NCBI RefSeq assembly: GCF_044647545.1
Contig: NZ_CP172818.1
Length of the DNA stretch: 64,000 nucleotides
DNA from: Escherichia coli
GTDB taxonomy: Bacteria > Pseudomonadota > Gammaproteobacteria > Enterobacterales > Enterobacteriaceae
Reading direction: 5' to 3' (one strand)
The notes under the pieces were generated by a model, which was given only the letters and a program-made list of their open reading frames with translations, was not told the origin of the DNA and did no database searches. This document shows positions 8,872-57,135 of the stretch, piece by piece (the stretch's first letter is position 1; each line of letters starts with the position of its first letter). The position numbers were made by a program, and so were the translations under genes.

Positions 8872-8901
8872 TTAACCATTCCCATACAATTAGTTAACCA
8901 A

Positions 8902-8934
8902 AAAGGGGGGATTTTATCTCCCCTTTAATTTTTC
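8902..8934 (+). terminator. Rho-independent terminator after clpX
   Basis: AAGGGGGGA...TCCCCTT hairpin followed by T-rich tract. Confidence 0.65.
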
Positions 8935-8948
8935 CTCTATTCTCGGCG

Positions 8949-8976
8949 TTGAATGTGGGGGAAACATCCCCATATA
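8949..8976 (+). promoter_or_regulatory. sigma32 heat-shock promoter of lon
   Basis: GTTGAATG (-35 like) ... CCCCATATA (-10 like) with correct spacing; matches sigma32 consensus. Confidence 0.7.
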
Positions 8977-9058
8977 CTGACGTACATGTTAATAGATGGC
9001 GTGAAGCACAGTCGTGTCATCTGATTACCTGGCGGAAATTAAACTAAGAGAGAGCTCT

Positions 9059-19053: not shown

Positions 19054-22600
<3,547 letters not shown>

Positions 22601-25561: not shown

Positions 25562-26134
25562 ATGAAACTCGTGCACATGGCCAGTGGTTTAGCGGTTGCG
25601 ATTGCGTTGGCGGCTTGCGCAGATAAAAGCGCGGATATTCAGACGCCAGCACCGGCTGCAAATACGTCTATTTCAGCAACACAACAACCTGCTATCCAGC
25701 AACCGAATGTCTCCGGTACCGTCTGGATCCGTCAGAAAGTCGCACTGCCGCCTGATGCTGTGCTGACCGTGACACTTTCTGACGCGTCTTTAGCCGATGC
25801 GCCGTCGAAAGTGCTGGCGCAGAAAGCGGTGCGTACCGAAGGTAAACAGTCACCATTCAGCTTTGTTCTGCCATTTAACCCGGCAGATGTTCAGCCGAAT
25901 GCGCGTATTCTGTTGAGTGCGGCGATTACCGTGAATGACAAACTGGTATTTATTACCGATACCGTTCAGCCGGTGATCAACCAGGGCGGAACTAAAGCCG
26001 ACCTGACATTGGTGCCGGTGCAGCAAACCGCCGTGCCGGTTCAGGCCAGCGGTGGCGCAACGACTACCGTACCTTCGACTTCACCAACTCAGGTGAATCC
26101 GTCTTCGGCAGTTCCAGCTCCTACGCAATATTAA
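25562..26134 (+). CDS. ybaY: Lipoprotein YbaY (function unknown)
   Basis: 190 aa, signal peptide with lipobox (LAAC), low-complexity Pro/Ala/Thr-rich tail. Confidence 0.9.
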   Translation: MKLVHMASGLAVAIALAACADKSADIQTPAPAANTSISATQQPAIQQPNVSGTVWIRQKVALPPDAVLTVTLSDASLADAPSKVLAQKAVRTEGKQSPFSFVLPFNPADVQPNARILLSAAITVNDKLVFITDTVQPVINQGGTKADLTLVPVQQTAVPVQASGGATTTVPSTSPTQVNPSSAVPAPTQY

Positions 26135-26141
26135 GCGCAGT

Positions 26142-26168
26142 TAACCCTCTCCGCCCGGAGAGGGTTAG
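26142..26168. terminator. Perfect hairpin between convergent ybaY and atl
   Basis: TAACCCTCTCC-GCCC-GGAGAGGGTTA, 11-bp perfect stem; no adjacent U-tract; overlaps atl stop codon. Confidence 0.55.
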
Positions 26169-26554
26169 TAGTTCCAGCGATAACGCTGCAAGTCGATTTG
26201 CCCGCTTCCCGATACCATCACACCTTCTGCCAGTAATGCCTGTCGTTGACGCTGTAAATCCGGTCCGGTTAGCGAAATTGTGCCGTGGCGATTAACCACC
26301 CGGTGCCAGGGCAAGGTGCTGCCTTCAGGGAGACGCTTTAACACACCGCCCACCTGGCGCGCGGCGCGGGGCGATCCTGCCAGTTTCGCCACATCACCGT
26401 AAGTGGTGACATAGCCTTCGGGAATAGCGGCGACGATTTGCCAGACGCGTTGGGGAAATGAATCTTCTTTTTCCATCTTTTCTTCCTGAGGTAATTTTTC
26501 AGCATAATCTGGAAAAACGCCCGAGTGAAGCCGCATTGCGCAAGAAACCAGCAT
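26165..26554 (-). CDS. atl: Alkyltransferase-like protein (MGMT-like DNA-binding domain lacking the active-site Cys)
   Basis: 129 aa from MLVSCAMRLHSGVFPDYAEK; contains PWHRVV in place of PCHRV. Also known as ybaZ. Confidence 0.9.
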   Translation of the reverse strand: MLVSCAMRLHSGVFPDYAEKLPQEEKMEKEDSFPQRVWQIVAAIPEGYVTTYGDVAKLAGSPRAARQVGGVLKRLPEGSTLPWHRVVNRHGTISLTGPDLQRQRQALLAEGVMVSGSGQIDLQRYRWNY

Positions 26555-26630
26555 CTGGCACGCAATGGGTTGCAATTAGCCGGGGCAGCAGTGATAATGC
26601 GCCTGCGCGTTGGTTCTCAACGCTCTCAAT

Positions 26631-26744
26631 GGGGGCTCTGTTGGTTCTCCCGCAACGCTACTCTGTTTACCAGGTCAGGTCCGGAAGGAAGCAGCCAAGG
26701 CAGATGACGCGTGTGCCGGGATGTAGCTGGCAGGGCCCCCACCC
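26631..26744 (+). ncRNA. ffs: 4.5S RNA (signal recognition particle RNA)
   Basis: 114 nt GGGGGCTCTGTTGGTTCTCCCGCAACGC...GGCAGGGCCCCCACCC matches the E. coli SRP RNA as I recall it; lies in the atl-ybaA intergenic region. Confidence 0.93.
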
Positions 26745-26854
26745 ATTTCTGCCTCCCCCCGTTTCGTCAAAAAATCCCAATATGGCTAAACTTTAACCAC
26801 AACTGACGTCGCAAGAATTGTCTGGCTGCGCAGTACGCTTCGGAGGTATGTCTG

Positions 26855-27208
26855 ATGAAGTATGTTGATGGTTTTGTGGTTGCCGTTCCTGCCGATAAAA
26901 AGGATGCCTATCGGGAAATGGCTGCTAAGGCTGCGCCATTGTTTAAAGAGTTTGGCGCGCTTCGTATTGTCGAATGCTGGGCCAGCGATGTACCGGATGG
27001 TAAAGTGACCGATTTTCGTATGGCGGTGAAAGCGGAAGAGAATGAAGAGGTTGTCTTTAGCTGGATTGAATACCCTTCAAAAGAGGTCCGCGACGCTGCT
27101 AATCAAAAGATGATGTCGGACCCACGGATGAAAGAGTTCGGCGAGTCCATGCCGTTTGATGGCAAGCGAATGATCTATGGCGGATTCGAGTCAATCATCG
27201 ACGAATAG
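26855..27208 (+). CDS. ybaA: DUF1428 family protein
   Basis: 117 aa ORF recognised as YbaA. Confidence 0.9.
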   Translation: MKYVDGFVVAVPADKKDAYREMAAKAAPLFKEFGALRIVECWASDVPDGKVTDFRMAVKAEENEEVVFSWIEYPSKEVRDAANQKMMSDPRMKEFGESMPFDGKRMIYGGFESIIDE

Positions 27209-27249: not shown

Positions 27250-28800
27250 TCACAAATGTTGCTCGGCCCAGCGTAAGAAATCCTCTTTCGGTAATGCCTT
27301 GCTGTAGAGCCAGCCCTGGCCGTAGTGCACGCCATGCTGGCGTAGCCACTCTTCTTGTTTACTGGTTTCGATTCCCTCCGCTACCATTTTCAGTTTCAGT
27401 GTTTTTGCCATTTCGATGATATGTGGCGTGACATTTTTATATTCCAGCGCATCAACGAAAGATTTATCGATCTTCAGAATGTCGACATCCAGATCCTGTA
27501 AATAGCTTAAACTTGAATACCCCGTACCAAAATCATCGAGATAAATTTCATGGCCCGCCTCCCGGTAGCGAGAAATTATCGGGGCGCTGGTTTTCGGATC
27601 GGCAAACTCGCGTTCAGTGAGTTCAAGCGCGATCTGTCTGGGATTAACCTGATAGTGATTGATCATTTCACGCAGCAATTGCGGGATTTTTTCCGAGGTG
27701 AGCACGGTGGATTCAAGATTGATCGAAATATGCTGCTGCGGATGCTGACGCAGCCAGTCGCCCATATCTTCAAAGACACTTTTTATAATCAGTAGCGTCA
27801 ACGGCTCAGAAAGCCCCGTTTGCTGTGCCAGCGGAATAAAACTATCTGGTGACAACCAACTACCGTCTGTCTGCGGCCAGCGCGCCAGTGCCTCAGCACC
27901 GACAATTTTGCCATTGGCTAAGGAGACAATCGGCTGATAGTGCACGCAAATATCACGATTTTCGATAGCATCCTGCAGCCGATGATGCGGTGACTGGATA
28001 CGGCGCAAAATACGCAGCACAAACATCGCTGCCAGCAGGCCAATCACCAACCCGAGCGGTAACCAAATAAAGACTTGCCGATGCCAGCCTTTCTGCAACA
28101 TTTTCGTTGAAGCCCAGGTGATGATCGAAATATTCATCTCCGGTAAGGGCAGGATATCGTAAATGATTCCATTATTTTCGATATGCTCACCGGGTGTTTT
28201 TTGTAGTCTGGTAATAATTCCCTGAGCAATTTCATCGCTGCTGGTTATCACAACGTTATGGGCATTGCCAATAATGGCGGCATCAATTTGCCATGAGCTA
28301 TAGGGAATGACATCAATAAAGGAAGCGGGGTCGATCATGACGACATAATGTGCCGTTCCCATGGCGACCATGTAACGGATAATGCCTAAATCGTTATGCG
28401 ATGTTAACCAGACACGATAACCATCTTTCGAAATTTTACCTGGCTCGGGGAAGGCATCGGGTGGGCTTTCATGCTCCAGAGACGAACACAGGGGAACGTT
28501 GTTATCGATATAAACCACTTCCTGAATATAGCGATAACTGTAAGATACCCGACGCATTTCCATGAGATGGGCTGCGCTACAGGCAGCGCCTTGCCATCTT
28601 TCCAGCTCTTGCAGCGCATCTTTCCCTTGTGTCGCCACCTTATTGGCCCGAATAGCGACGCGGGAGGAATACGTATTCAGCTCTTCAATAAATGATGTTT
28701 CTACCTGCTGATGGGCCAGCCAGATGCTTAAGCCGACAGGCAGCAATACTGAAAGAATCAGTACTCCCGAAATAAGGCCGACCAGATGTCGTGTTCTCAC
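27250..28800 (-). CDS. pdeB: c-di-GMP phosphodiesterase (CSS periplasmic domain + EAL domain)
   Basis: EAL motifs present (EALARW, DDFGTGYSS); start chosen at GTG 28798-28800 (516 aa); an in-frame ATG two codons upstream (28806) is the track start. Also known as ylaB. Confidence 0.88.
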   Translation of the reverse strand: MRTRHLVGLISGVLILSVLLPVGLSIWLAHQQVETSFIEELNTYSSRVAIRANKVATQGKDALQELERWQGAACSAAHLMEMRRVSYSYRYIQEVVYIDNNVPLCSSLEHESPPDAFPEPGKISKDGYRVWLTSHNDLGIIRYMVAMGTAHYVVMIDPASFIDVIPYSSWQIDAAIIGNAHNVVITSSDEIAQGIITRLQKTPGEHIENNGIIYDILPLPEMNISIITWASTKMLQKGWHRQVFIWLPLGLVIGLLAAMFVLRILRRIQSPHHRLQDAIENRDICVHYQPIVSLANGKIVGAEALARWPQTDGSWLSPDSFIPLAQQTGLSEPLTLLIIKSVFEDMGDWLRQHPQQHISINLESTVLTSEKIPQLLREMINHYQVNPRQIALELTEREFADPKTSAPIISRYREAGHEIYLDDFGTGYSSLSYLQDLDVDILKIDKSFVDALEYKNVTPHIIEMAKTLKLKMVAEGIETSKQEEWLRQHGVHYGQGWLYSKALPKEDFLRWAEQHL

Positions 28801-28963
28801 CAGCATATCCTTATTAACACAGTGTAGGGAAAGTATATCTGATTGTGGAAAAAGGCTGGCAGGAGATAAGGAGGTAGAGCCGGGATTTCATGAAGTGATG
28901 GGTGGAAACGAACGTTGTCATTTGACCAGGCGCAGAGCTTTACGCCTGGTATGTAACCCTAAC

Positions 28964-42102: not shown

Positions 42103-44034
42103 ATGAGTTATCAGGTCTTAGCCCGAAAATGGCGCCCACAAACCTTTGCTGACGTCGTCGGCCAGGAACATGTGCTGACCGCACTGGCGAACGGCTTGTC
42201 GTTAGGGCGTATTCATCATGCTTATCTTTTTTCCGGTACCCGTGGCGTCGGAAAAACCTCTATCGCCCGACTGCTGGCGAAGGGGCTAAACTGCGAAACC
42301 GGCATTACCGCGACGCCGTGCGGCGTGTGCGATAACTGTCGTGAAATCGAGCAGGGGCGCTTTGTCGATCTGATTGAAATCGACGCCGCCTCGCGTACCA
42401 AAGTCGAAGATACCCGCGACCTGCTGGATAACGTCCAGTACGCTCCGGCGCGTGGTCGTTTCAAAGTTTATCTCATCGACGAAGTGCATATGCTGTCGCG
42501 TCACAGCTTTAACGCACTGTTAAAAACCCTTGAAGAGCCGCCAGAGCACGTTAAGTTTTTGCTGGCGACGACCGATCCACAGAAATTGCCGGTGACGATT
42601 TTGTCACGCTGTTTGCAATTTCATCTCAAGGCGCTGGATGTCGAGCAAATTCGCCATCAGCTTGAGCACATCCTCAACGAAGAACATATCGCTCACGAGC
42701 CGCGGGCGTTGCAATTACTGGCGCGCGCCGCTGAAGGCAGCCTGCGAGATGCCTTAAGTCTGACCGACCAGGCGATTGCCAGCGGTGACGGCCAGGTTTC
42801 AACCCAGGCGGTCAGTGCGATGCTGGGTACGCTTGACGACGATCAGGCGCTGTCGCTGGTTGAAGCGATGGTCGAGGCCAACGGCGAGCGCGTAATGGCG
42901 CTGATTAATGAAGCCGCTGCCCGTGGTATCGAGTGGGAAGCGTTGCTGGTGGAAATGCTCGGCCTGTTGCATCGTATTGCGATGGTACAACTTTCGCCTG
43001 CTGCACTTGGCAACGACATGGCCGCCATCGAGCTGCGGATGCGTGAACTGGCGCGCACCATACCGCCGACGGATATTCAGCTTTACTATCAGACGCTGTT
43101 GATTGGTCGCAAAGAATTACCGTATGCGCCGGACCGCCGTATGGGCGTTGAGATGACGCTTCTGCGCGCGCTGGCGTTCCATCCACGTATGCCGCTGCCT
43201 GAGCCAGAAGTGCCACGCCAGTCCTTTGCGCCCGTCGCGCCAACGGCAGTAATGACGCCAACCCAGGTGCCGCCGCAACCGCAATCAGCGCCGCAGCAGG
43301 CACCGACTGTACCGCTCCCGGAAACCACCAGCCAGGTGCTGGCGGCGCGCAAGCAGTTGCAGCGCGTGCAGGGAGCAACCAAAGCAAAAAAGAGTGAACC
43401 GGCAGCCGCTACCCGCGCGCGGCCGGTGAATAACGCTGCGCTGGAAAGACTGGCTTCGGTCACCGATCGCGTTCAGGCGCGCCCGGTGCCATCGGCGCTG
43501 GAAAAAGCGCCAGCCAAAAAAGAAGCGTATCGCTGGAAGGCGACCACTCCAGTGATGCAGCAAAAAGAAGTGGTCGCCACGCCGAAGGCGCTGAAAAAAG
43601 CGCTGGAACATGAAAAAACGCCGGAACTGGCGGCGAAGCTGGCGGCAGAAGCCATTGAGCGCGACCCGTGGGCGGCTCAGGTGAGTCAACTTTCGCTACC
43701 AAAACTGGTCGAACAGGTGGCGTTAAATGCCTGGAAAGAGGAGAGCGACAACGCAGTATGTCTGCATTTGCGCTCCTCTCAGCGGCATTTGAACAACCGC
43801 GGCGCACAGCAAAAACTGGCTGAAGCGTTGAGCACGTTAAAAGGTTCAACGGTTGAACTGACTATCGTTGAAGATGATAATCCCGCGGTGCGTACGCCGC
43901 TGGAATGGCGTCAGGCGATATACGAAGAAAAACTTGCGCAGGCGCGCGAGTCCATTATTGCGGATAATAATATTCAGACCCTGCGTCGATTCTTCGATGC
44001 GGAGCTGGATGAAGAAAGTATCCGCCCCATTTGA
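42103..44034 (+). CDS. dnaX: DNA polymerase III subunits tau (full length) and gamma (via -1 frameshift)
   Basis: 643 aa; AAA+ clamp-loader motifs (GTRGVGKTS); the slippery heptamer inside the ORF is listed separately. Confidence 0.97.
   Translation: MSYQVLARKWRPQTFADVVGQEHVLTALANGLSLGRIHHAYLFSGTRGVGKTSIARLLAKGLNCETGITATPCGVCDNCREIEQGRFVDLIEIDAASRTKVEDTRDLLDNVQYAPARGRFKVYLIDEVHMLSRHSFNALLKTLEEPPEHVKFLLATTDPQKLPVTILSRCLQFHLKALDVEQIRHQLEHILNEEHIAHEPRALQLLARAAEGSLRDALSLTDQAIASGDGQVSTQAVSAMLGTLDDDQALSLVEAMVEANGERVMALINEAAARGIEWEALLVEMLGLLHRIAMVQLSPAALGNDMAAIELRMRELARTIPPTDIQLYYQTLLIGRKELPYAPDRRMGVEMTLLRALAFHPRMPLPEPEVPRQSFAPVAPTAVMTPTQVPPQPQSAPQQAPTVPLPETTSQVLAARKQLQRVQGATKAKKSEPAAATRARPVNNAALERLASVTDRVQARPVPSALEKAPAKKEAYRWKATTPVMQQKEVVATPKALKKALEHEKTPELAAKLAAEAIERDPWAAQVSQLSLPKLVEQVALNAWKEESDNAVCLHLRSSQRHLNNRGAQQKLAEALSTLKGSTVELTIVEDDNPAVRTPLEWRQAIYEEKLAQARESIIADNNIQTLRRFFDAELDEESIRPI
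43386..43397 (+). promoter_or_regulatory. dnaX programmed -1 ribosomal frameshift site (A AAA AAG) with -1 frame stop
   Basis: A_AAA_AAG at 43386-43392 in the correct register of the dnaX frame (codons GCA AAA AAG); -1 frame reads AAA AAA GAG TGA; GC-rich structured region immediately downstream. Confidence 0.85.
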
Positions 44035-57051: not shown

Positions 57052-57135
57052 ACACCGTCGCTTAAAGTGACGGCATAATAATAAAAAAATGAAATTCCTC
57101 TTTGACGGGCCAATAGCGATATTGGCCATTTTTTT
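57052..57135 (+). ncRNA. chiX: ChiX small regulatory RNA (Hfq-dependent; MicM/SroB)
   Basis: 84 nt ACACCGTCGCTTAAAGTGACGGCATAATAATAAAAAAATGAAATTCCTCTTTGACGGGCCAATAGCGATATTGGCCATTTTTTT, 5' hairpin plus intrinsic terminator; matches ChiX as I recall it; in the ybaK-ybaP gap. Confidence 0.88.

Follow-up and report, generated by a model that had tools for sequence, protein, structure and literature searches.

Within the 64,000-nucleotide stretch of Escherichia coli DNA analysed here (the window), the gene encoding the 4.5S RNA, ffs, lies between atl (ybaZ) and ybaA in the gene order ybaY-atl-ffs-ybaA-pdeB, as in K-12 (Table 1). A preliminary description, made from the sequence alone, had placed this RNA gene in a 300-bp gap between atl and ybaA. 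That length is exact if atl begins as in K-12 (390 nt, 129 aa, start at 26554), leaving a gap from 26555 to 26854. The PGAP annotation calls a shorter atl of 312 nt with a start at 26476, giving a gap of 378 bp instead; both start calls retain the Pfam domain of the atl product, which starts at residue 33 of the longer protein. Whether the ffs promoter region adjoins the start of atl also depends on which call is taken. From the atl stop to the ybaA stop, the window and K-12 are separated by 10 single-base differences, three of which fall in the intergenic flanks (26564, 26758 and 26781); ffs, its leader and the promoter hexamers carry none. No tRNA or tmRNA genes were found by ARAGORN in the 64-kb window.

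Table 1. Features at the ffs locus, with positions in the window and the basis of each assignment
Feature	Position	Strand	Basis
ybaY	25562-26134	+	PF09619
atl/ybaZ	26165-26554 (K-12 start)	-	PF01035
Putative sigma-70-like promoter of ffs	26570-26598	+	Consensus match; function predicted
5′ leader of the 4.5S precursor	26605-26630	+	Fold; RNase P removal from the literature
Mature 4.5S RNA (ffs), small bacterial type	26631-26744	+	Identity to K-12 b0455, Rfam, covariance model
Domain IV core	26669-26697	+	MFE and centroid fold, Rfam consensus
Putative unoccupied attB core for tyrosine-integrase islands	26724-26749	+	Last 17-21 nt of ffs and 4-5 nt downstream; comparative
ybaA	26855-27208	+	PF07237
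pdeB	27250-28806	-	Gene order as in K-12

Identity and distribution of ffs

By direct comparison, the segment from 26631 to 26744 is identical at 114 of 114 nt to ffs of K-12 MG1655 (b0455; NC_000913.3, 476448-476561), so the coordinates proposed in the preliminary description are exact to the base. The segment reads GGGGGCTCTG...GGGCCCCCACCC on the positive strand, its ends being GGGGGCTCTGTTGG...GGCAGGGCCCCCACCC, and the K-12 record lists the gene as a 114-nt ncRNA, "signal recognition particle 4.5S RNA". The Rfam covariance-model search that had been suggested as a check was run on the whole window with release 15 at gathering thresholds, and returned a significant match to RF00169 (Bacteria_small_SRP) at 26639-26735 on the positive strand, with 68.1 bits (E 5.5e-13) against a gathering score of 40. 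This match spans model positions 1-97 of 97 and is not truncated, and the small type is the top member of the Rfam SRP clan for this RNA. All sequence and structure features that define RF00169 were checked in the window RNA and found to be present. Three other matches in the window score above their gathering scores, each a known E. coli feature: the sraA sRNA (8892-8987, negative strand, 106.7 bits), the DnaX programmed-frameshift element (43367-43431, positive strand, 96.8 bits) and the sroB sRNA (57052-57135, positive strand, 82.1 bits).

It is thus virtually certain that this segment is ffs, the single-copy gene for the 4.5S RNA that forms the RNA subunit of the E. coli signal recognition particle (SRP), and no evidence contradicting this identity was found. 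It is K-12 ffs as carried by a different E. coli strain, an already known gene. The 4.5S RNA is among the best-studied bacterial RNAs, its gene is annotated in essentially every E. coli genome, and its biology here adds nothing new; what the case illustrates is that a small essential RNA gene was recognised and placed to the base from the sequence alone. The preliminary remark that protein-based annotation cannot see such a gene is correct by definition but points to no practical gap: RefSeq annotates ffs, and did so under the match in every record among the matches listed. A practical point concerns the extent of that automated annotation, since PGAP/RefSeq marks only the 97-nt Rfam extent of ffs, as opposed to the 114-nt mature RNA of the curated K-12 record, so that the annotated feature starts 8 nt too late and stops 9 nt too early relative to the mature molecule.

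A search of 5,426 complete E. coli genomes located the 114-nt ffs exactly once in 5,424, with an identity of at least 99% in 5,420, and the 501 bp around the gene in the window are 100% identical to several strains, such as FDAARGOS_497. This essential gene went unmatched in two of the genomes labelled as complete, and two genomes have their match on a plasmid-labelled record. The match in strain EC77 (NZ_CP196708.1, 619299-619415) spans 117 nt at 97.4% identity, which would imply 3 extra nucleotides in an RNA that otherwise hardly varies, and could reflect either an error in sequencing or variation that is tolerated. Plasmid-borne copies, present in 12 PLSDB records, were considered as a sign of ffs mobility and rejected: all of these records are non-mobilizable, several are 4.8-5.4 Mb in size, and the smaller ones that were sampled carry chromosomal neighbours (ybaY, MGMT family protein), so that they are probably mislabelled or fragmentary chromosomes. 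The single phage-borne match, at 100% identity to the unannotated 9-kb record OR845144.1 ("Escherichia phage EC22.5-2"), is probably host DNA and was likewise set aside.

A copy of ffs could in principle be a non-functional or displaced fragment, such as the attR remnant of a mobile element, and displaced 3′ fragments of ffs do occur in genomes with an island at this site. The copy in the window, however, is full length and identical to that of K-12, lies in its native chromosomal context with a predicted promoter upstream, and is the sole match to the covariance model in the 64-kb window. The window also lacks an island, the stretch from atl to ybaA having the same length as in K-12. A displaced or defective copy is therefore very improbable.

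Structure and covariation of the 4.5S RNA

Folded alone, the ffs RNA forms one long hairpin of 42 pairs (-57 kcal/mol) in which the centroid and minimum free energy (MFE) structures coincide, with a z-score of -3.15 and 2 of 200 shuffles folding as well. The hairpin pairs the 5′ with the 3′ end of the 114-nt molecule, has no Alu domain, and is unaltered when the leader and trailer are included (fold of 26607-26752). The domain IV hairpin with its GGAA tetraloop, which the preliminary description had proposed to look for by folding, is seen in the MFE structure; GGAA at 26683-26686 (nt 53-56 of the RNA) is the hairpin loop and is closed by three pairs. Two internal loops sit where domain IV expects them, one asymmetric (ACCA at 26669-26672 opposite A at 26697) and one symmetric (26676-26679 opposite 26690-26693). 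The domain IV segment GGUCAGGUCCGGAAGGAAGCAGCC corresponds to the most conserved stretch of the Rfam consensus (upper-case GGUCAGG.C.GGAA.G.AGCAGC), to which it is identical.

As a structural test independent of the Rfam seed, the domain IV motif GTCAGGNCNGGAANGNAGCAGC was searched against one genome per species (GTDB representatives), yielding at least 120 stretches from very diverse phyla. Among the matches listed, 118 segments could be extracted, and 100 of these diverged segments fold alone into the same tetraloop-capped hairpin, their arms sharing only about 27-40% ungapped identity with the window. A covariance model built from the window and three enterobacterial copies scores ffs at 136.2 bits, with no other match in the window, and was used to align 67 sequences. 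Across these 67 bacterial sequences, standard pairs occupy 90.1% of cells in an alignment that is itself fitted to the structure of the model, as opposed to 39-43% in controls with the 3′ partners displaced by 1-3 columns. Compensatory changes, in which both sides differ, occur in 39 of the 42 pairs, and none of 500 shuffles reaches any of the observed pairing measures. The homologues were chosen by a fixed 18-base motif, whose columns are uninformative by construction; the two tetraloop-stem pairs that the search pattern left free are paired in every one of the 67 sequences and each occur as four pair types. The RNA is also kept while its flanking genes vary between species, with ybaY found upstream in Providencia and an unrelated hypothetical protein downstream in an Enterobacter record.

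This pattern of variation bears on whether the region might be protein-coding. Open reading frames exist here mechanically, the candidates being one of 112 aa (26458-26796, positive strand) and overlapping ones of 31-60 aa, but the preliminary view that the gap holds no credible ORF stands up well. The 112-aa frame runs antisense through the start and 5′ part of atl and has no Pfam family at E ≤ 0.01, while three neighbouring genes match strongly in the same scan; no RefSeq record annotates a CDS at this position, and the variation across species takes the form of compensatory base-pairing and is not codon-like. A real gene among these frames is highly unlikely, and the proposal can be considered already effectively refuted. 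That the structure is instead cis-acting, an upstream terminator or a ybaA leader resembling SRP RNA by chance, draws on the presence of a strong G+C-rich hairpin 110 nt upstream of ybaA, but is exceedingly improbable and equally refuted in effect by a full-model covariance match 28 bits over the curated threshold that is not explicable by chance, by identity to a biochemically characterised RNA with conserved protein-binding loops, and by retention of the RNA where the flanking genes differ.

Expression and function of the 4.5S RNA

The reading of the locus as ffs extends to its upstream region, where a promoter-like site consists of a -35 hexamer TTGCAA (26570-26575), a 17-nt spacer and a -10 hexamer GATAAT (26593-26598), followed by the G+C-rich GCGCCT. 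It is the only promoter-like site between 26300 and 27000, where shuffled sequence averages 0.4 such sites. The expected start, 7 nt past the -10 hexamer, is position 26605, which coincides with the published -26 5′ ends and is predicted for the strain of the window from the consensus match and the K-12 literature. In that literature, the 5′ ends of pre-4.5S RNA determined by RNA-seq are "primarily at -26", a sigma-70 prediction also gives -26, and leader lengths of 22-26 nt are reported, with earlier estimates of 22-24 nt (PMC5499578). Processing of pre-4.5S RNA is carried out by RNase P (PMC7049720, PMC5499578). In the fold of 26607-26752, the leader forms a separate 6-bp hairpin (26607-26623) next to an unchanged 4.5S hairpin.

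No canonical intrinsic terminator was found downstream of ffs in a scan of 26300-27000. A terminator-like site at 26622-26636, straddling the junction between leader and mature RNA, was rejected as noise, one such site being found and 1.1 being expected by chance. Short 3′ extensions of the 4.5S RNA are trimmed exonucleolytically by RNase T/PH. Taken together, ffs would have a sigma-70 promoter of its own, with transcription starting about 26 nt before the mature 5′ end, in a manner that fits the published RNA-seq; RNase P would then remove the leader and the 3′ end would be trimmed. The 114-nt product folds into one long hairpin, as both folding and covariation show.

The binding site for the Ffh M domain consists of the two internal loops adjoining the tetraloop. 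The preliminary description, which spoke of a conserved GGAA tetraloop region that binds Ffh, was right about the presence of the tetraloop and only loosely right about its partner: the tetraloop chiefly docks FtsY, and Ffh sits on the adjacent loops. The Ffh M domain would accordingly be expected near the capped end of the 4.5S hairpin, and the GGAA tetraloop may recruit the NG domain of FtsY once a ribosome displaying a signal sequence is bound. The 4.5S RNA of this strain would in this way act as both scaffold and catalyst for co-translational membrane-protein targeting and is predicted to be essential.

These roles are described for the identical K-12 molecule. The SRP comprises 4.5S RNA and Ffh, whose M domain has picomolar affinity for the RNA; the FtsY NG domain docks on the SRP RNA tetraloop in the "early" targeting complex, and the tetraloop and the distal site of the RNA have roles in FtsY docking and GTPase activation (PMC4737761). 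Essentiality, which the preliminary description had also asserted, is stated in the literature for the K-12 RNA (PMC5499578, PMC6059433), and Ffh binding, stimulation of the Ffh-FtsY GTPase cycle and essentiality are all established for it (PMC4737761, PMC6059433, PMC5499578).

A putative island attachment site at the 3′ end of ffs

Matches to the 501 bp surrounding ffs are interrupted in 65 of the E. coli genomes, 58 of which match this query in two places. The weakest match, in the clinical strain 20220828076 (NZ_CP151161.1), breaks at window position 26748, four bases past ffs, where a 31.1-kb island lies between ffs and ybaA. This island is flanked by a 25-bp direct repeat, TAGCTGGCAGGGCCCCCACCCATTT, equal to window 26724-26748 (record extract 20325-20349), and starts with a tyrosine integrase (PF00589, Phage_integrase; E 6.9e-13). 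Its cargo is a multidrug-resistance region that includes floR, qnrS2, several copies of IS26, and an integron region with blaOXA-1, catB3, arr and aac(6′)-Ib-cr. Strain 730V1 (NZ_CP061764.1), which belongs to the major group, carries an island of 8.5 kb whose 22-bp flanking repeat corresponds exactly to window 26728-26749 (extract 20098-20119 and 28601-28622), likewise beginning with a PF00589 integrase adjoining ffs. Full-length identity between the two integrases is 46%, ffs remains complete at the left junction of both islands, and the 21-bp core of the putative attachment site is TGGCAGGGCCCCCACCCATTT.

A near-identity search with the integrase of NZ_CP151161.1 found only two genomes, and a composite query of ffs and integrase was therefore used in distant mode. 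With this query, the match runs past ffs into the integrase part of the query in about 64 of the 5,426 complete E. coli genomes (2 + 12 + 50; ~1.2%), strain NCTC86 included; among the matches listed, nearly all rows have a gene annotated as "site-specific integrase" immediately after ffs. The site is empty in the remaining ~98.8% of genomes, K-12 among them, and also in the window, as judged from the unchanged length of the atl-to-ybaA stretch.

From these sequence comparisons, the last 17-21 nt of ffs together with the 4-5 nt downstream appear to act as the core of an attB site, a complete ffs being restored at the junction next to the integrase. An integration site at this position is very probably real. 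The wider proposal, that the 3′ end of ffs is a genuine hot spot for tyrosine-integrase islands and also one not yet described for E. coli, is offered only tentatively and is, as a whole, less likely than not; under it, the site would work like the targets in tRNA and tmRNA genes and be used by at least two diverged integrase lineages. No published account of tyrosine-integrase islands at this gene in E. coli emerged from a literature search of incomplete coverage. The attB reading is the only mildly new element at this locus and concerns other genomes more than the window. An island attachment site at the 3′ end of ffs, occupied in about 1% of strains and in one case by a resistance island, would matter for the use of this intergenic region as a "neutral" landmark and for the tracking of resistance islands.

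Comparison with known systems places the locus closest to K-12 ffs (b0455), with which it shares all 114 nt, the neighbours ybaY, atl/ybaZ, ybaA and pdeB, the promoter hexamers and the leader. The large-type bacterial SRP RNA (Bacillus scRNA) and the eukaryotic and archaeal 7S RNA have in common with the window RNA the domain IV (helix 8) core, with a GNRA tetraloop and the internal loops that bind Ffh/SRP54, and Bacillota loci and two archaeal loci (DPANN and Poseidoniaceae) were also among the matches listed for the domain IV motif; unlike these larger RNAs, the window RNA is a single hairpin without an Alu domain. The putative attachment site resembles the tRNA- and tmRNA-gene (tDNA, Islander-type) sites, whose island geometry is described in PMC4383910. 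In the occupied genomes, too, a stable-RNA gene has received the island at its 3′ end and is restored at the junction next to the integrase, and the far junction is marked by a displaced 3′ fragment, but the target is the SRP RNA gene of E. coli and the window holds only the empty site. Other elements also have ffs as their att target, among them phage phiEf11 in Enterococcus faecalis (PMC12540744) and type I-F3b CRISPR-associated transposons (PMC11406308). The elements at E. coli ffs are tyrosine-integrase islands, however, and differ in this from both the Enterococcus siphovirus phiEf11 and a Tn7-like transposon.
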